From: Heptranchias perlo
Taxonomy: Eukaryota
Assembly: GCF_035084215.1 (NCBI RefSeq)
Contig: NC_090340.1
Coordinates: 5,332,001-5,396,000, forward strand
Direction: 5' to 3'
Length of the DNA stretch: 64,000 bases
Position numbers and translations under genes: made by a program. A model generated the notes under the pieces. The model was not told where the DNA came from. It made no database searches and was given only the letters and a program-made list of their open reading frames with translations. Of this stretch, positions 12,305 to 52,080 are shown piece by piece (the stretch's first letter is position 1; each line of letters opens with the position of its first letter).

Positions 12305-12444
12305 GTAGCTGTTTATTTTTTTTTACCCAGTTTCAATGTAAACAATGATTTCCTTATTATTCACATACATTCAGTTAAAATTCTCTGTTCTTGAATTTTT
12401 TTTTGTCCGTGGAATGTCATCTAACCAATTATATTTTTATATAG

Positions 12445-12765
12445 TTCCCGCCGATACTTCGATCGAAGTGACTCAACTTCCTGAAAGCGTGAACGCAGTC
12501 AAAGGTACAAACGTGACCTTTCATTGTTCAATTCCCTTCTTTCAAGATAACTCACAGGTGAGCATCGACTGGTGGAAAGAGGGTAAATATGAATACCTGA
12601 GTACATCAGGCGATAACAGAAAAGTGTCCGGTTTCAGTAGCAAATTCAGCGGTTATCTTCAGATTGTCAACGTGAGTTTCTCGGACGCCGGAATATATTA
12701 TTGCGCTGTCAAACATAAGGGAGATACAACTGGAAGCCGAGTTGGATCAAATTTAACTGTATGGG
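12445..12765 (+). CDS. IgSF receptor exon 2: germline-joined V(J)-type domain
   Basis: Acceptor TTTTTATATAG|. VTQLP, NVTFHC, IDWWK, LQIVNVSFSDAGIYYC, J-like GSRVGSNLTVW. Phase-1 donor G|GTAAG. Confidence 0.95.
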
Positions 12766-13664
12766 GTAAGTATAAAAATTGCAAAGAATGAACGATGCTA
12801 TTCTGACTCATAAAGTTCGTAGCAAATTGAACAAACGTCGGAGCACGATTGCAATGATTGTATCATATTTTACGCGACGGAACATTGATGTTTTAAAATA
12901 ATAGCAATGGAAATTAATTAATTTTAGACGTACACATTTTAATAATGTAACAGGGTAAAAATCAATATATTCTACCAAGCATTGCAGCATTTCATTAAAA
13001 TTTGGTGATTATAATAAACTGCAAATCCGTTGTTAAATTTAAACCAGAATTTGATATTACAGGTAAAAATGCATTTGTCACATAATGATATCTGGACTGC
13101 AGTGTTATATCTGTCCAGCTCAGCTGGAATAAACATAGCTATTAATTTATTTGATACTTTGCTCCGCGTTTGGAAGCCTGAACCTTCAGCAAATTCAATT
13201 CCTCGCAGTTGTTTATTCCAAGTGGGATTGCTTCACCAATCGATAGCGATGTCTTCTCTCCAATCCAAATTTGTGCAAAGCGGGATAATAAATCAAAACA
13301 ATTTTGCAAATGAAGGTTACCCCGAGCTACAATACAATGATTGTTTTTTGAAGTTGAGACGTTCCAGCCAGTAAACAACTATCGGCGGATATGCGTGAAA
13401 TTGTCCATTACTTTCTTCTTGTCCACACCCCCCCCCCCCCCACCCCATATACTGCTTTCTTTTTTCTTTTGGTTCATTAGAATTCACAGCATGTTCATTA
13501 TTTCCATACGTGCACTGAAAAAGTGGTATGTGTTAGTAAGCAAATGATAACAATATTTTGTAAAGCACAGAAATAAAATTAAGCTCTAATACTGATTTAA
13601 GCTATGACAGTCTGTCTATTAATAGTGATATTATTCTGTTTATGTTTTATGTTCTGTTTTATAG

Positions 13665-13976
13665 TACCTCCAACTGCATTGAAAACACTCTCCAAAGTAC
13701 CCGGAGGGGGTTCTTCTGCGTCCCTGACCCTCGTGTGCGAAGCGTTTGCATTTTACCCTGGGGTTGTAACGTTCGGCTGGTATAAAGATGGTATCGAAGT
13801 GACAACCGGGATACATGTCATTAAAAACCGAAAATCAGAGGGATTGTATGACGCTTCCAGCTATTTGGAAGAGCCAGACCCTGCTCAGAGCGGGACTATT
13901 TATATCTGTCTGGTTTCTCACATCACCTTGGAGACACCGGCCATTGTTACACACATTGTTACATATTCTGACGCAG
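13665..13976 (+). CDS. IgSF receptor exon 3: C1-set domain
   Basis: LVCEAFAFYP, FGWYKDG, GLYDASSYL, YICLVSH (YxCxVxH); phase 1-1 exon with canonical AG/GT. Confidence 0.95.
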
Positions 13977-14330
13977 GTAAAGAGGCCGACATTATAACCT
14001 CATTGATCATCAAGGACACCCTTCACGTTAATTCATAACACAATATTCTAAACTTGTTGCACGGAAAATGCCTTCAATATATAAATCAAAAGTTCTAATC
14101 CAATGATTAGATTAACCATAGATTTATTTGAACGTTTTAATAATTACTATATCAATGTTCGCAGATTGCGATAGAGAAGTGAAAAACGAAGAATTAATCT
14201 TACGAATGTATTACATTTCCTTCTCTTTTTCAATGATAAACATTCAGTTTTGTTGGTTCCGCTTGTGATTTTATTTTACATGTTCCTCTTTTTTTCCAAG
14301 AGCGGAGCAGCATTTATTCCCAGATTACGG

Positions 14331-43119: not shown

Positions 43120-44185
43120 AAAGAATCATAGACTGGTTACAGTACAGAAGGAGCCGTGCCGGCTCTCTGCAAGATCAATCCAGTTAGTCCCACTCCCTCA
43201 CCCTTGCCCCGTGGCTCTGCAAATTTTGTTCCTTCAAGTACTTATCCAATTCCCTTTTGAAAGCCATGATTGAATCTGCCTCCACTCTCCTTTTAGGCAA
43301 TGCATTCCAGATCGTAACCACTCCCTGCGTAAAGAAGTTTTTCCTCGTGTCGCCTTTGTTTCTTTTGCCAGTTACCTTAAATCCGCGTCGTCTGGTTCTC
43401 GAACCTTCTGCCAATGTTTTCAGCTGCTCTCTATCTACTCTGTCTGGACTCCTCATGATTTTGAACACCTCTATCTAATCTCCTCTCAACCTTCTTGCTC
43501 TAAGGTGAAAAAACCCAGCTTCTCCAAACTATCCAGCTAATTGAAGTCCCTCAAGCCTCGAAACATTCTGTGAAATCTTTTCTGCACCCTCTCTAAGGCC
43601 TTCACATCCTTCCTAAAGTGCTATGCCCAGAGTTGGACACAATACTCCAGTTGTGGCAGAACCAGTGTTTGAGAAAGGAAGATCATAACTTCCCTGTTTT
43701 TGTAATCTATGCCTCCATTTATAAAGCCCAAGATCCCGTATGCTTTTTTTAACTGGTTTCTCAACTTGCCAACTTCAGCGATTTGTGCACATATACACCC
43801 AGGACTCTCTGTTAGTGCAACAAGTTTAGAATTGTATCCTTCAGTTTATATTGCCTCTCCTCGTTCTTCCTATCAAAATGTATCAAGTCCCATTTCTCTG
43901 AGTTAAACTTCATATGCCACGTGTCCGTCTATTGCCCCAGCCTGCCTACGTCCTCTTAAAGTCTGTAACTCTCCTCCTCTGTTCACTGCACTTCTAAGTT
44001 TTGTGTCATCTGCAAATTTTGCCTTGCATTTCCAAGTCCAAGTCGTTAATATATAAGGAGAAAAGCAGTAATCCTAGTACCGACCGCAGGGGAACAACAC
44101 TCTATATCTTATTCCTGTCCAAAAAGAACCGTTCACCACTCTTTCCTGTTACTTAGCCAATTTCGTAACCATGCTGCCACTTATG
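43120..44185 (-). mobile_element. CR1 LINE, 3' portion
   Basis: KNFFTQGVVTIWNALP; reverse complement of KFADDTKL at about 44000. Confidence 0.9.
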
Positions 44186-44314
44186 AGATTTTACTCTCAG
44201 TGGCCAGTAATTGACCTGACTACAATTTGGTAAAAAGGTGCTTTATTGAAATTCACAAAAGGATCAACACACACAATGTTGGGGCAATAGTTAACAACAC
44301 AGAGCAAGATATTT

Positions 44315-44500
44315 TTATTATTATTATTTGTTCATGGGATGTGGACGTCGCTGGCGAGGCCAGCATTTATTCCCCATCCCAAATTGCCCTTCAGAAGGTG
44401 GTGTTGAGTCGTCTTCTTGAAACTCTGCAGTCTGTGTGGTGAGGGTTCTCCCACATGCTGTTTGGAAGGGTGTTCCAAGAATTTGACACAGCGACGAATA
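44315..44500 (-). mobile_element. 3' tail of family-B LINE
   Basis: Reverse complement of the conserved tail. Confidence 0.9.
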
Positions 44501-45500
44501 TCACCGATTCCGCACTGGGTAGAGTCGTGTCTCTGTAGGAATCTTGAAGAAAGTACGCTTTCCTCCCTTCCTGGGGTATCTTCTTTGATTCACACTGCTT
44601 CTGCCCCGCCAGTGGTGACCCCTTAGACTCCTTGTCCTCAGTCCTGCTCCGCTTGGAGTCACTTCTTTTTCTGGATCGTTCGTCGAAATTACTGTTTGGT
44701 TGGTCTCCAATGCTACCAGTCGTTACTCCTGCCAAGTCTCTACAACCTGATATCAGTGCAAGGTGCTGTTTTTTATGCCTCTTTTGGGGGAGTACCCAGT
44801 GTTAGCTATTGACATGGGCCCTTACCCTATTGTGGTATCCCAAAAAGGCGAGGTGTCCAATGGTCCCTCGTGTTGTTGTTTCTTTAAGGATAAAGGGTCA
44901 GCCTTCCCCACTATCTTCCACCTTTCAGCGGTCTGCATGAACAACAAGTGTCCCACCTCTGGTCTCAACCAACCATCACCTTACAGAGTGGCTTAAGACT
45001 GTATTTGCCTCACCTTATCTACTTTTTTGCCTCCGTTAAGGTTGGGAATCCATCTTTCCCCATGCCTTCTTTGACTTCTTCAGCTTCCAGGCCAGGTGTC
45101 ATGGACCAGCCTGTAAGGCTTCACTGTTTTACGACTACCCAGCATCTGATAAGAGTCCCAGCCCTAACCAAGTCACGGGTGTTTGTTTGTGGCATCTTTT
45201 AGCTAGTTCATTTAAACCTACCAGAAGACAAAATGCTAAGGCTGCCTTTCCTGCCAGTTAATGATTTTGCGAGCTTCCTGCCCTGATATTAGTCCTGCTT
45301 GATTTACACATCCAACACCAGATTATTTAACGACACAAGTTCAGATATATTTAATTTGCGACTTGTTGGTTTTTCCGAATTGTGACGTATTCACTACCAA
45401 ATAAAAGTTTTGTTCATAACTTTTAAAAACTACAAGGGGCATAGAGACCAGTCGGAAACTATCTGAATTCAGAGGTTTTTTTTTAAACTGCGTGAGGTTG

Positions 45501-45548
<48 letters not shown>
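45501..45548. repeat. (TA)n(GA)n microsatellite inside the putative LTR
   Basis: Read directly from the sequence. Confidence 0.95.
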
Positions 45549-45654
45549 TTACATACAGACACCATTACAGCTATTTCACTTGCCCACGGTACTAATGAAC
45601 AAGGGCACAAACGTACAGTCCTTGCCTTGAGGGGGAGGAGTCCTCTCTCACCCC

Positions 45655-48101
45655 TCACTTTAGTTCCCTCAGTAACTGCGTTGTTAGCAGGTGTTCAGTA
45701 CGGCGTCTTAATTTGGCAATTATACGTTTAACAATGCGAGTAACATACATTAAGTAAATGCTCAACAGGAGCTGCAATACTACAAGGAGGTGAGAGGCAA
45801 TAGGCACCTGGGAAGGACTGATATGCTTGACGCTCTCTCCCACCAGTGTGACTCCTCCTCAAGATTGTCAATATCCTCGTCTATCAGGGCATTATTCTGC
45901 CTGAGTAGGTAGAAATGTTTCAGGGAGTTGTTTAGCCGTGTTACCAAGTCCTTGGGAGTCTTCCGTGAGTTGGGGAATGTCATATCCGAAGCTGGCCACA
46001 TAAGTGTGTTAATCAGTCTTAGAGGCGTCACATATAGTCGCATTGATTTGTGTATGACCCTCGATGTTTAACAGCACCTGCTGTTCAATCTTAGAGGAAA
46101 AATGTGCCTTAAAGCATAAGCTGGAGCTAGTGATTGGGCAAGGGATATTGTCCCGATGGAGAATACTGCTAACTGCCGTGTTCATGCAATGCTGGCCCTT
46201 GCCTTGGTGGCTGTAACGCAATGAGTGTTTCCACCCTGCCCGGGCAGACACGGAACAGGTGGTACTGCCTGTGCCCCAACTGAACCGACAGTCAGGTACA
46301 TAGTGGGTGGTGAAATATTAGGGGCACAACCAGGCACCCTGAGCCCGAGCACATCCTGATAGATTGGCGGCTATCCAGATGTAATTGACAATGACTGTCA
46401 CAAAAGAGTGGGGAGGGGGGTGTTCGTGTTTTGCTAGTACTGGTCCCTGCATTACTCGTATATTCTCCACCCTGAACACTGGACTAGCCGGCTTATCACG
46501 CCTAATAAGAGGGATCCTCAGGACAAGTCCCATAAAAGATTGTCCCTCGGATGTACCCTATTAAGCCTCCTCTTCAGTCATATTTGAGGAATCCATGCGT
46601 CATGTCTGGTGTTCCATTTTTTGAAGTCTATAATGGACACCCAGTGGGTTAGGAGCCCTGATCCGATCGGGCAGAGGTTTTCCCTGGCCTGTTCGTTCAT
46701 CCACACTCCGTTCGCTGTCCAGGTGATTCTCATAGATGTCTCAGCTGAGGCGTTCTAGGTTTCTCTTATAAGGGCATTGATAGTGTGAGCGACCTGGCTC
46801 GAATGATTTAGTACATCTAAGATATTAACCTGAGTGTTGGCCCCCTCGAAGAGGGTGCCTTCCTGGATATCATCTTCTTTTCTCATGATCTCCTGCTTTT
46901 TGTAACTCAGGGTCTGTATACTGTCGGCCATATTATTTATACGCAGTGTGTTTATCCCTGCTAGGCCTTCCACTCCCGCTAGTATTTCGTCGTATTTAAG
47001 ATCCCTCCTTGTCCTTTGGTGTGCCACACCATTGTTTAGGGTGAGCTTGGCCTGGGTGTTTTGCAAGCGTGGGGCCTCTGTGCGAGTGCAGTATTTTATA
47101 TGGTGCGAGATCTCTGGGTCCTCATTTCCAACCATCCTACTATTCGTCTCCCAGAATGTCCCTATCAGTTGGTGCATCATTTCTCTGCACAGTTGTCTGT
47201 GTTCATGCTTATACCACCAGGGCAGCCCAATATTGGTCAGGTTCAGAAGGACTGGAATGGTTTCATAATTCAGGTCATTTTGGAGAACTGTATCCGTGGA
47301 GATGACAATAAATCCATTGGCTGGCCCTGGTTGTAACTTGGGGCAACCTGTATTTGTCAGTTGGTTATGGCTAGGCTTGGGCCGCGGGGGTTGGCGTAAA
47401 GATCTAAACCTCACTACATGTGCTCCTCCATTGGGGTCGCAGCGTCTGGGAAATCGTCAGTGCACACATTGTCCCTTTGGCGGGTTGATGGTACAGGGCT
47501 GGTACCTATTGGTTGAATCACTGCTCTATGCATAGCAGAGGGACGGGTTTTCACAGTCCTTTCGTGGCTTATTGTCGCTTCCCTGGTGACAGGTAGCGTT
47601 GTGGTTCCCATGGATTCTTATCGCTCGGAAGCATGGGTAAAACCCCTCATTATATGTCCAAAGGCGGGCCAGCACAAGTCTCTGCCCCTTTCCATTAATG
47701 ACTTAGCTCTTTCCTGCTCGGGGCCGTATGACTGCCGTATCCTCACCCTGTCTTCCGATAAGCTTTGGAAATTTCCCCAAAAACTACCATCCGCTGATAA
47801 ACCCTCCCATAATCCTTACACTCGCATCATATGCACACCTTGGTGCCTTCTTTGATTGTGTATGTTGTGGTGGTTGTGTGATATTACATTCTCAAAGGAG
47901 CAGTCCCTCCTGTGTGTGAAGGTTGGAAATGGAATATGGCTCTGTCCCATTTTCCAGGCTTACGTCGCCTCCCTCTACCCTCAGCATGCAGTGCGGCTGG
48001 GGAAGCTCCCCGGGGACCCACTATGTCCATGTTCCAATCAGGATTAACCACCATGGCCACCTCAGTGTGGGTCCGAATTGACCTCTCCCTGTGTCACACA
48101 T
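45655..48101 (-). pseudogene. env: env pseudogene, about 815 codons: signal peptide, Ig-like/Cys-rich domain, furin site, F-like fusion ectodomain, TM
   Basis: Acceptor TTTTATGCCTTGTAG|ATG at 48101; WPWWLILIGTW leader; RTRR at 47004-47015; heptad repeats; TM LLVVLQLLLSIYLMYV; several stops and frameshifts. Confidence 0.8.
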
Positions 48102-48855
48102 CTACAAGGCATAAAATATAATATACCAGACTACATTTGCATGAAGAGCGGTACATAGTAACATATAAACATAGCAATGCGCATAATTGTTTGGTTATCA
48201 GTTAGTGGCTATTCGTTCATGGGAGGTGGCACATTTTTCCTTTGCCTTTCCCTTATTGTCAAGTTATCCTATCCCCATGCTGACCTCGAGGCTCGCACCA
48301 TTGTCTCCAGCAGCACCGACCTTTTTCTAAATACCCAGATGCTTACTCGTAGGGTGGAATAATTTTACTTGAGTTAAAACCACCGGATCAGTGCCAAGGC
48401 ATCTCATTAATTTATTCAGCCTTTCCTGTCTTTAACTGATTGATGTGGTATCATTGACTGCTTCCCTTCTTTCCCTTTTCTGGAAACTGTACCAGTTATA
48501 CCGCTGGACTAAGTCGGGAATGGCCCTTTCCACTTAGCTTCAAAGGTGTGACCTTTTTTTTCCCCCATAATTCAGGACCATTACCACATCTCCAACCTGG
48601 TATTCAAACGGACTGATTTTTTGTCAAAGTAGCGCTTCATCTGTTCCCTGCTCTTCCAGATTTTTGCTTCCACAAACTCATTAGTCTTGTTGACATGATC
48701 TACCATTTTCTACAGCCACCGGTATTCCAATGTTCCCAAATGCAGATTTGTTGCCATGGGCCATAACAGGGGCCCAGGTGTGCGCATAAGCCTCCATATC
48801 ATAGCCTGATATGGTGTTATGCCGGTAATGCTATGAGGAGTTGATCTAATGGCCA

Positions 48856-49770
48856 TCAGGCACATAGGCAGCATTCACTGATGATTGCACAGTTCCATTC
48901 GCAACCACTCATATAAGGAAGCAGTCCGCGCCCGCATGCAGCAAGATCTGGACAACATCCAGCTTGGGATGATAAGTGGCAAGTAACATTCGCGTCAGAC
49001 ATGAGCCAGGCGATGACCATCTCCAAAAAGCGAGAGTCGAAACCACCTCCCTTTGACATTCAACGGCATTACCATCGCCGAATCCCCCACCATCAAAATC
49101 CTGGGGGTCACCATTGACCAGAAACTTAACTGGACCAGCCACATAAATAATGTGGGTACAAGAGCAGGTCAGAGGCTGGGTAAATCTGCAGCGATTGACT
49201 CACCTCCTGACTTCACAAAGGCTTTCCACCTTCTACAAGGCACAAGTCAGGAATGTGTTGGAATACTCTCCACTTGCCTGGATGAGTGCAGCTCCAACTA
49301 TACTCAAGAAACTGGACACCATGCAGGACAATGCAGCCCGCTTGATTGGCGCCCCATCCACCGCCCTAAACATTCACTCCCTTCAACACCAGCGCACCAT
49401 GGCTGCAGGGTGTAACATCCACAGGAGGCACTGCAGCAACTCGCCAAGGCTTCTTCGACAGCACCTCCAAATCCCACGACATTTACCACATAGAAGGACA
49501 AGGGCAGCAGGCACATGAGAACAACACCCCCAACACGTTCTCCTCCAAGTCACACACCATCCTGACTTGGAAATATATCGCCGTTCCTTCATAGTCACTG
49601 TGTCAAAATCCTGGAACTCCCTACCTAACAGCAATGTGGGAGTACCTTCACCACACCGACTGCTGCGGTTCAAGAAGGCGGCTCACCACCACCTTCTCAA
49701 GGGCAATAAGGGATGGGAATAAATGCTGGCCTTGCCAGCGACGCCCACATCCCATGAACGGAAAAAAAAT
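48856..49770 (+). mobile_element. 5'-truncated family-B LINE inserted in retroviral pol
   Basis: Colinear with 33345-34258; ends in an A run. Confidence 0.95.
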
Positions 49771-50409
49771 AACAGTCAAAATAACTTCCCGTGTACTGGA
49801 GGCTTTCCATCAATCCTACAAATGTTACTCTTAGATTACAGAGGCAGGGACAACATGGTGTTAATAGCATAGACAATGTGAGACCAGATAATAATGGCCT
49901 GGTTGGGGTTCTCAATTACGGCGGTCAAGAGGGCCACCACCTCGGCATATTGGTACGTGTGGGGCATTCACTTCTGCTGGATCATTCCACCGGGAATTAA
50001 TACCGCAAAGTCCGTGTATGCTGTACCCTTTTGGTGAAATAACGAACTGAAAATGTCGACGTCTGGCGCGTTTGCTGCCGGTTGTTTAAGAACTTGGTGG
50101 TCCACACAATCTAGAAGGGGTAAGGGACATTAATGCGGATCGCATAGCAGCTGAGGAAGGAGGGTCTTTTGCTTCAGGGTGACGTCAAGAGCCTGCTGCG
50201 TCAACAGCAGTGTTCAGTGGCTCACCGAGCGGATTCAACTAAGGTATCCCCAGGCTTAAGTAGCAGTTTAAGCGGCGTATGGGGAGAGTGCAGTACCGTC
50301 GATTGTAATCCCGTAATGTATGTGAGTGTTTAACCGCCTAAAACATCGCCAACAGATGAATCTCACATGAATCAGTGCCAGGGCCATTAGCATTTGCAGA
50401 CTCTATACA

Positions 50410-50850
50410 TTATTTGAAATGAAGTATCCGAATAAAGCTGTAGAAATTTGCAGATGACACCAAATTGAGTTTGAATTGAAAGGATAGAATATTAAAAAAA
50501 GAAATGTAGCTGGGTAGCTTGGGAAGATGAGCAGGTGCGTAGAACATGTTTTTTTTCTGTGGTATAATGCAAGATAATGGATCCAAAATACACTCGTTTA
50601 TAACAAACATGAGAGGGATCTGGTGCTATCACTGTAAGCTGCATGCGAACCAATAGCGCATGTGGGGTAATAGCGAAAATTAACGATACATTGATATTGT
50701 AAGCGTGAGAGATCAAAAATGTCAGGAGATGATAATAAGGCTTTACACACACTGGTACGGTCACACCTGGATATCTGTGTATAGTTGTGGTGCCCATATT
50801 AAGGCAAAGGTATCCAGGCTCGGTATCTATACAGAACTTGACAACAATCA
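50410..50850 (+). mobile_element. Decayed CR1 RT fragment within the ERV
   Basis: AAATTTGCAGATGACACCAAATTG (KFADDTKL) at about 50444. Confidence 0.7.
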
Positions 50851-52080
50851 TGGCCTAGCCCAACTGACCTTGTATGGCCCCAGTCTGAGCACCGCTGAGT
50901 AATTCAGTTACGAGATGTCACAGACTCCTACAGCGTAGGACTCAACGCCAGTGGCCATCGTGGTGATCACGCACTCCATGATAAAATGCACAGGGTCGAT
51001 GCTATGCTTGCAAACCCCTCACAATTTGATAGTGATAACCACATAATGTAATTTAGAAAAAACAACGTTTCCAAATATAATGGACGTGCAGCTGAGACCC
51101 ATCATCTGCAATTACTGCGCCATGTGGGAACTCCAGGATGCTCAATGTGTCCTGGAGAGCCACATGTGAAGAAAATGCCTCCAGTTGCTAGAACTCAAGC
51201 TGAGGTTTTCTGAGTTTAAGGGTCAGCTGGAGTGACTGCAGAGCATAAGGGAGTTTGAAGGTTTCCTGGATCGTATGTTCCAAGAGGTGGCCACGCCACA
51301 GCCATAAAAAGTTAAGGATAACAAGTAGGTGGCCATTCGAAAAGGTAGGTAGAGTCAGGCAGTGCAGGAATGTTCTGGGTGTGTGCCACTCTCAAACCGG
51401 TATTCAGCATTGAATACCAGTGAGGGTGACGACACCTCGAAGGAGTGCAGTCCTGAGCATAGCACCATGGGGCAGAGGATTGCACAGGGGCGCACAGTGC
51501 ATTATGGAAATGGAGTAATCATTTGGGATTCGATAGTCAGCGGACAGATAGGCGTTTCTGTGACCGTCGACGTGAGTCCCGCGTTATATGTTGCCTCCAT
51601 GGTGCTAGGGTAAAGGACATTATGAAGAAGGTGCAGAACATTCTGTGAGGTGAAAGGGAACAGCCAGATGTTGTGGTACATGTGGGTACGAATGACATAG
51701 AAAATAAAAGGGATGAGGTCCTGCAGTCAGAGTGTCAGGAGCTAGGAAGGAATTTAAAAAGCATGATCTAAACTCAGTAATCTCTACATTACTCCTAGTG
51801 CCACGGCTAGTGAATAAGAAGTATAAAGATACGGCAGGTGAACGCATGGCTAGAGACCTGGTGCAAGAGGGAGGGCTTGGGATTCTTGGGTCATGGGGAA
51901 CAGTTCTGGGGCAGGAGGGTCTTGTTCAAGACGGGCAGGTTACACCTCAACAGAGTTGGGACCAATGTTCTCGTGGGGAGGTTCATTAGTGCTGTGGGGA
52001 GAAGTTAAGCGAATTTAGCAGGGGGATGCGCACCAAGATGTAGCATTAGAAAGGAGAACCAAGGTGCACAAAGCATTGGG

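Follow-up and report, generated by a model that had tools for sequence, protein, structure and literature searches.

The stretch of contig NC_090340.1 analysed here (64 kb, hereafter the window) carries on its minus strand, from about 50370 to 44184, the 3′ half of an endogenous retrovirus (ERV). Along the element, an RNase H, the C-terminal part of an integrase, an env gene, a polypurine tract, and a probable 3′ long terminal repeat (LTR) follow one another; positions below refer to the minus strand unless stated otherwise. We consider it moderately probable that this is a dead copy of a multi-copy family whose host is likely a shark or ray, that its envelope protein (Env) is of the F type with a likely N-terminal IgV-like module, and that the family is remotely related to lokiretroviruses, likely as a separate lineage. 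The original prediction, which described a lokiretrovirus-like ERV with a paramyxovirus-F-type Env, had overlooked the extra N-terminal domain, a gap filled by a long interspersed nuclear element (LINE), and the probable LTR, with which the element reaches below 45655.

The env gene spans about 815 codons (48101-45655). Its motifs PGPANG (47330-47313), RTRR (47015-47004), LRIPLI (46521-46504), ANLSGC (46368-46351), and GAWLCP (46338-46321) were found as originally described, as were two heptad-like stretches (called with no control run), and Env contained no CX6CC motif and, by eye, no immunosuppressive domain (ISD). The 5′ part of the gene (47450-48101) encodes a likely signal peptide and the extra N-terminal region, in which Ig-type strand motifs were recognized. 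It is followed by an F2-like segment from the PGP..G motif (47016-47450), matched by tblastn and by profile with the relatives P0007, P0008, and P0009 described below. The furin-type cleavage site RTRR (47004-47015) aligns with RKRR/RHRR of the relatives, lies about 105 residues from the PGP motif, and is the one R-x-[KR]-R site in window piece P0001. The post-furin ectodomain (45810-47003), assigned by profile, tblastn, and the Atlas match of a relative, comprises heptad region 1, a cysteine-rich F1-like core, and heptad region 2. The transmembrane (TM) helix (from about 45807; hydropathy 2.04; tblastn with P0007) and a short tail of about 30 residues are encoded in a further frame (45655-45809), which ends with the stop codon at 45657-45655. 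The long distance from RTRR to the TM, previously put at about 410 codons, was borne out in kind, but we counted 399 codons from the furin cut to the TM start here and 413 in the open relative P0008.

A full-library search among 1.84 billion proteins returned four matches to Env at E ≤0.001, three of which were named: Pristiophorus japonicus (P0005), Rhinoraja longicauda, and Chiloscyllium punctatum (P0008, GCC29952.1). When P0008 was used as the query and the 8000 best candidates were scored, an open reading frame (ORF) of Scyliorhinus torazame (P0009) was added, and all four named relatives are chondrichthyan. A profile built from P0007, P0008, and P0009, containing no window sequence, matched the window env with 88.9 bits (domain E-value (domE) 1.4e-29) and gave a further match near the TM. 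When viral and metagenome contigs were scanned for Env, no relative was detected, and word-seeded searches returned nothing for P0001 or the RNase H. The repetitive and unnamed fourth match, P0006, was dropped as a likely chance match. P0005, labelled 'Niban 1-like', belongs to the Env family in its first 250 residues, which alone were used; the rest is unrelated, and the entry is likely an annotation chimera, possibly an exonisation. The surroundings of the provirus also bear on the host: V-set (12342-12788) and C1-set (13601-14035) exons of a V-C1 receptor-type gene were found on the plus strand about 30 kb away. C1-set domains are restricted to jawed vertebrates, so these exons indicate a jawed-vertebrate host; a chondrichthyan host is likely on this indirect evidence and that of the Env relatives.

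For the Env family we predict an F-type (class Ib) fusion protein, in keeping with its layout of one furin site, a long stretch from there to the TM, two heptad-like stretches, and no CX6CC. In the ESM Atlas, residues 180-670 of P0008 matched Baculo_F/errantivirus Env (0.93), paramyxovirus F (0.92), and coronavirus S2 (0.87), on a scale that is not calibrated for parts of proteins; haemagglutinin rows scored 0.88-0.89, indicating that part of this signal is generic to class I proteins. The whole of P0008 reached one unnamed chordate cluster (0.82), which serves as a lead only. Paramyxovirus/pneumovirus F (PF00523), baculovirus F/errantivirus Env (PF12259), and coronavirus S2 are the nearest named Atlas clusters of P0008, but there was no Pfam or PDB sequence match to them, and the IgV module differs.

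Compared with the loki Env, about 220 additional N-terminal residues are present. The PGP..G motif begins at residue 258 here and at 188-236 in the relatives, compared with 30-40 in the loki-type Env ORFs L002 and L008, and in published loki Envs it is located near the start. A compact Env with PGP..G right after the signal peptide, which is seen in the loki-type ORFs and is no stated criterion of the lokiretrovirus paper, is therefore not what this element encodes. When an N-terminal profile of three relatives was used, it matched mouse CD8a IgV over the full domain (E 0.0017), and 34 of the 35 rows were Ig V domains; the UniRef label of P0008 is also Ig-like. The B-strand Cys, the C-strand Trp, and the D.G.Y.C F-strand of IgV appear in the sequence profile of the relatives and at motif level in this copy, in which B-strand-like and F-strand-like motifs (47850-47833 and 47651-47631) lie in separate frames with a spacing that would fit. 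From these sequence features, the Env family likely has an N-terminal IgV-like attachment module. Attachment as its role is suggested by analogy with the gamma-type Env (MLV, Env-Pb1), whose N-terminal IgV-like receptor-binding domain (RBD-C) is used or proposed for receptor binding (10.1101/2024.03.17.585361). The gamma-type Env differs in having an ISD, CX6CC, and a short TM ectodomain, whereas neither motif is present here and the core is F-type.

Several observations weigh against the overall reading of the element favoured here. The Ig motifs of the window were not above controls, since equivalent motifs occurred in 26 of 500 shuffles and in 50 of 400 random stretches. The model of the Ig domain had a predicted local distance difference test (pLDDT) value of 47 and no Foldseek match at E 0.001; its best Z of 5.9 was among generic beta-sandwiches, with no Ig fold. 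For P0008, the AlphaFold2 model (pLDDT 29.9, from a shallow alignment) gave no usable structure, and 4-10 of every 100 shuffled proteins also reached Atlas scores of 0.9 or higher. Strong hydrophobicity is lacking in the segment that follows RTRR. Pfam assigned none of the F, foamy, or Ig families to 10 window pieces, to 8 more whose sole match was a LINE reverse transcriptase (RT), or to P0005-P0009, and PF00523 was matched by neither the Env pieces nor the relatives. Neither a fusion protein nor an RNase H or integrase turned up in PDB sequence searches with P0001-P0004, P0007, P0008, A1, and A2. Furthermore, decay lowers the identities, so that the distance from lokiretroviruses is overstated by an unknown amount.

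For the pol remnants, metagenome contigs were scanned with a degenerate integrase motif, giving 16 loci, of which 8 had an integrase match and 8 had none; the motif was found in none of the viral contigs scanned. The loki-type references L002, L008, and L011 (also L004-L006, L009, and L016) are metagenome contigs with lokiretrovirus-type pol, two of which carry RT and env, and around the motif they match published loki Pol by eye. The references were thus chosen by a shared integrase motif, and the comparisons with outgroups (foamy viruses, snakehead retrovirus (SnRV), epsilonretroviruses, and Gypsy) were made by eye from published alignments. The integrase remnant (48430-48873), consisting of the post-core helix and a C-terminal domain with a GPY/F-type motif, interrupted by stops and frame changes, matched the loki-type profile over 48871-48430 with 41.3 bits (domE 9e-15), and with the search motif removed it still reached 19.1 bits, a score attained by none of 500 shuffles. 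By eye, its post-core stretch is identical to Loki-Bsp at 18 of 33 positions, compared with about 11 for walleye dermal sarcoma virus (WDSV), 9 for SnRV, and 10 for Gmr1. The RNase H remnant (49781-50060) has in-frame stops and lacks its C-terminal end; its part at 49967-49781 is the best site of the window for the loki-type profile, a weak match (domE 0.035) that none of 500 shuffles equalled. Its motifs are mixed by eye: QYAE as in lokiretroviruses and foamy viruses, the C-terminal motif KP..H.KLF as in lokiretroviruses, and T.FAV in the second strand as in SnRV/Xen-1. The probable C-terminal half of the tether, a degenerate first RNase H (50145-50370, multi-copy depth), was recognized from by-eye motifs at 50367-50145 in three frames alone, and the loki tether profile found no match in the window; its end, SPH...LLP.LL, presumably resembles orthoretroviral tethers, the comparison being with that of MLV. 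Hence, of the predicted layout with a tether and a second RNase H ahead of the integrase, the cellular-type second RNase H with QYAE is backed by a weak profile match and the tether by eye.

Against the loki Env, the block at 46533-46315 (P0002) gave an hhalign E-value of 0.0019 over 59 columns, equalled by none of 60 shuffles, which is marginal. In hmmsearch, the number of shuffles out of 500 reaching the observed score was 2 for P0002, 4 for P0009, 34 for P0001, 39 for P0008, and 100 for P0007, and in hhalign 23 of 60 shuffles reached the score of P0008, with a profile-profile E-value of 0.15. Most of Env is no better than shuffles against the loki Env. The F-type nature of Env proposed originally is therefore supported by the Atlas match of P0008 and by the marginal loki block. 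Taken together, the integrase, the RNase H, and one Env block show a detectable but remote loki kinship at the sequence level.

The likeness to known systems can be followed further. Lokiretroviruses (PMC7947760) and their sister group, the Odin elements (PMC9040795), also have an RNase H with QYAE before the integrase and the same spacing of the integrase post-core and C-terminal parts, and lokiretroviruses have an F-type Env with the PGP..G motif, a single furin site, an N.C...LCP block, and an ectodomain that is long after the furin site. The Env layout that characterizes lokiretroviruses, with a signal peptide, an RXXR site, a coiled coil, a TM, and similarity to paramyxovirus F, recurs here, the F similarity being seen through P0008 in the Atlas and one block against the loki Env. 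The original prediction took the long ectodomain as a pointer to lokiretroviruses; it left out of account that foamy viruses also have an F-like long ectodomain (PMC11468914). Its lokiretrovirus placement was not demonstrated. The integrase is 28-29% identical to the loki-type loci, compared with 60% between L008 and L011, and the RNase H is 26-29% identical to these two over 66 amino acids, compared with 56% between them, so that both stand at about half of the loki-loki identity, the tether is missed by its profile, and the element lacks the RT by which the group is defined. The six frames of the window contained no retroviral RT, protease, or gag; the loki RT profile had no match in them, and the sole RT match was that of a LINE. 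The layout appears loki-like, and this copy is too decayed to settle its own lineage.

A true divergent lokiretrovirus of cartilaginous fish, whose RT would nest within the loki clade or branch as its sister and whose Ig module would be a later gain, is rather unlikely in our judgment. It would account for the post-core stretch, for the scan in which all real matches to the degenerate motif were loki-type integrases (8 of the 16 loci), for QYAE and KP..H.KLF in the RNase H, and for the common PGP motif and Env block. It fits poorly with the halved identities, the missed tether, and the Env scores of P0001, P0007, and P0008, which lay within shuffles. Lokiretroviruses are not reported from Chondrichthyes, and in the lokiretrovirus paper five chondrichthyan genomes were screened, including both that hold P0008 and P0009, and none of three Orectolobiformes was positive (PMC7947760). 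The purine tract of L002 also differs, ending in GGGGAGA-TG and not in GGG-TG, although this is one locus. A canonical retrovirus of the SnRV clade (Huo) in which domain shuffling brought in a loki-type integrase along with an Env of the F type is a possibility to which we give tentative weight. The T.FAV strand, unlike AG[VI]G of lokiretroviruses by eye, and the tether end would agree with it. SnRV-related ERVs are known in Callorhinchus (PMC4422223), clade Huo spans all vertebrates (PMC6001957), and RNase H and integrase have been swapped repeatedly among retroviruses (PMC7947760). However, the integrase stretch, compared by eye, is unlike that of SnRV, whose Env tail measures 136 residues and whose LTR measures 518 bp (PMC12193657), as against the short tail and the LTR of more than 1 kb here.

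That the element is a cartilaginous-fish ERV of the foamy-like clade Tu appears improbable. The foamy Env has the paramyxovirus F domains I-III in common (PMC11468914), and foamy viruses and fish foamy-like ERVs (PMC11468914, PMC5210030, PMC5512871) share with this element an F-type core with a built-in module, a long LTR, and GGGTG at the border of the polypurine tract and LTR (PMC5210030); in addition, QYAEV.ALL.AV resembles CoEFV by eye, and shark foamy-like ERVs are known (PMC5512871). The module here, however, is Ig-like and precedes the F2 strand, whereas the foamy RBD is inserted between that strand and the furin site; a single furin site is present, the integrase stretch is unlike that of the fish foamy-like AliFLERV and AciFLERV, no foamy Env family appeared among the Atlas rows, and GGGTG is common, with 105 sites in the window. 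The tripartite Env of Spumaretrovirinae, with a leader set off by a second furin site and an RBD between the F2 strand and the furin site, was not found; many fish foamy-like ERVs lack it too (PMC5210030). The 5′ half of the element, which would hold the other foamy marks, a Gag lacking the Cys-His box and a tRNA-Lys primer-binding site, is missing from the window. An env-bearing Ty3/Gypsy (errantivirus-like) element is very improbable. The top Atlas rows were arthropod Baculo_F/Gypsy Env clusters, the integrase has a GPY/F-type tail, and no profile confirmed the tether, but the RNase H ahead of the integrase is a second one, of cellular type and with QYAE, where Metaviridae would have a single Gypsy-type RNase H, and a broad screen reportedly found no homologues of invertebrate errantiviruses among vertebrate elements (10.1101/2023.10.26.564294).

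If the Env is F-type with an N-terminal IgV-like module, as we favour, the ancestral protein would have entered the secretory path through its signal peptide, trimerised, and been cut by furin at RTRR. The IgV-like module would then have attached to the cell, and the two heptad regions would have refolded into a six-helix bundle. Attachment and fusion would thereby have been united in one chain, as in the foamy Env with its inserted RBD or the coronavirus spike with its N-terminal S1, whereas paramyxoviruses use two proteins. A chondrichthyan F-type Env with a front module would represent a third way, besides these two, of joining attachment to an F-type core. Four scenarios for how the retroviral Env arose and how it relates to paramyxovirus F have been left standing (PMC7947760), and the chondrichthyan Env family would offer a deep-branching host group for dating that origin.

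P0008 and P0009 are open, full-length, and 86% identical, although they come from two shark orders; heptad region 2 is identical at 58 of 60 positions, the TM at 36 of 40, and the tail at 16 of 29. Judged from these sequences, they may be co-opted env genes. A shark-genome Env screen was limited to Envs with ISD/CX6-7C (10.64898/2026.05.06.723177), and since such screens relied on the ISD motif, env candidates of this kind lay outside their design. We found no paper on F-type Envs of cartilaginous fish that bear an Ig domain or have been co-opted, with subscription journals and Repbase outside the search. The two ORFs are natural intact proteins for solving the fold, besides being a candidate co-opted gene. 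A wider proposal is speculative, and we put it forward with reserve: sharks and rays may host a lineage outside lokiretroviruses and the named genera, with an F-type Env carrying an attachment module captured from a host IgV, and one env of it may have been co-opted in at least two shark orders (P0008 and P0009) as a counterpart of syncytins that is not gamma-type.

At the 3′ end, a polypurine tract (45651-45670; 17 of 20 purines) lies over the env stop and ends in GGGG followed by TG. The probable 3′ LTR (44184-45650, 1467 nt) starts 5 nt past the env stop; a comparable purine content was found at 6 of the 105 GGGTG sites of the window, and GGGTG at this border is itself weak evidence. The LTR has TGAGA...TCTCA ends and an AATAAA at 44247, 63 nt ahead of its end, and contig depth was raised across 44500-45820. 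The end pattern by itself occurred at 8 of 101 GGGTG sites under a looser pattern, and we therefore based the LTR call on its position and the contig depth as well. A strict polypurine tract pattern missed this LTR start and matched one other site, and no second LTR was found in the window. The LTR includes a LINE 3′ piece (44306-44497) and a microsatellite (about 45490-45562). As side observations, a short inverted repeat, GAGGGG...CCCCTC (45618-45656), is made up of the polypurine tract and the beginning of the LTR, and a basic, serine-rich, stop-free stretch of 136 codons (44391-44801) lies within the probable LTR.

This copy is non-coding owing to stops, frame changes, and the LINE-filled gap. 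In env, 7 stops were counted in P0001 and 2 in P0002, with several frame changes besides; near 46570 and within 46010-45895, the post-furin part is broken by in-frame stops and changes of frame. In contigs from four runs of one sample, this copy had a depth of 5-13, and paralogous pieces, about 85% identical to it, differed at 57-67 positions in about 400-430 nt. The family is multi-copy and has long been inactive at this locus.

The window is LINE-rich, with self-repeats covering 38% of it by self-BLAST. In the place of the integrase core, which is missing from the element, lies a 914-nt 3′ piece of a very high-copy LINE (48874-49787, plus strand, antisense to the provirus; self-BLAST, depth about 2 million). 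With the loki-type locus L008 as the ruler, about 370 codons (the end of the RNase H, the integrase zinc finger, and the catalytic core) are missing there, and no clear target-site duplication was found at the LINE junctions. Upstream, 51025-50400, which had been counted as part of the element, matched no pol profile, and 50660-51070 showed single-copy depth. The multi-copy stretch of about 330 nt from the integrase end to the env start (48101-48430) may represent either a leader or the remains of a small accessory ORF. Finally, a 1195-nt contig (record 28 of X5, which is presumed to be an RNA run) was about 81% identical to the integrase remnant at 48564-48874 and ran 566 nt further on the LINE side; it likely derives from a paralogue in which more of the integrase survives.

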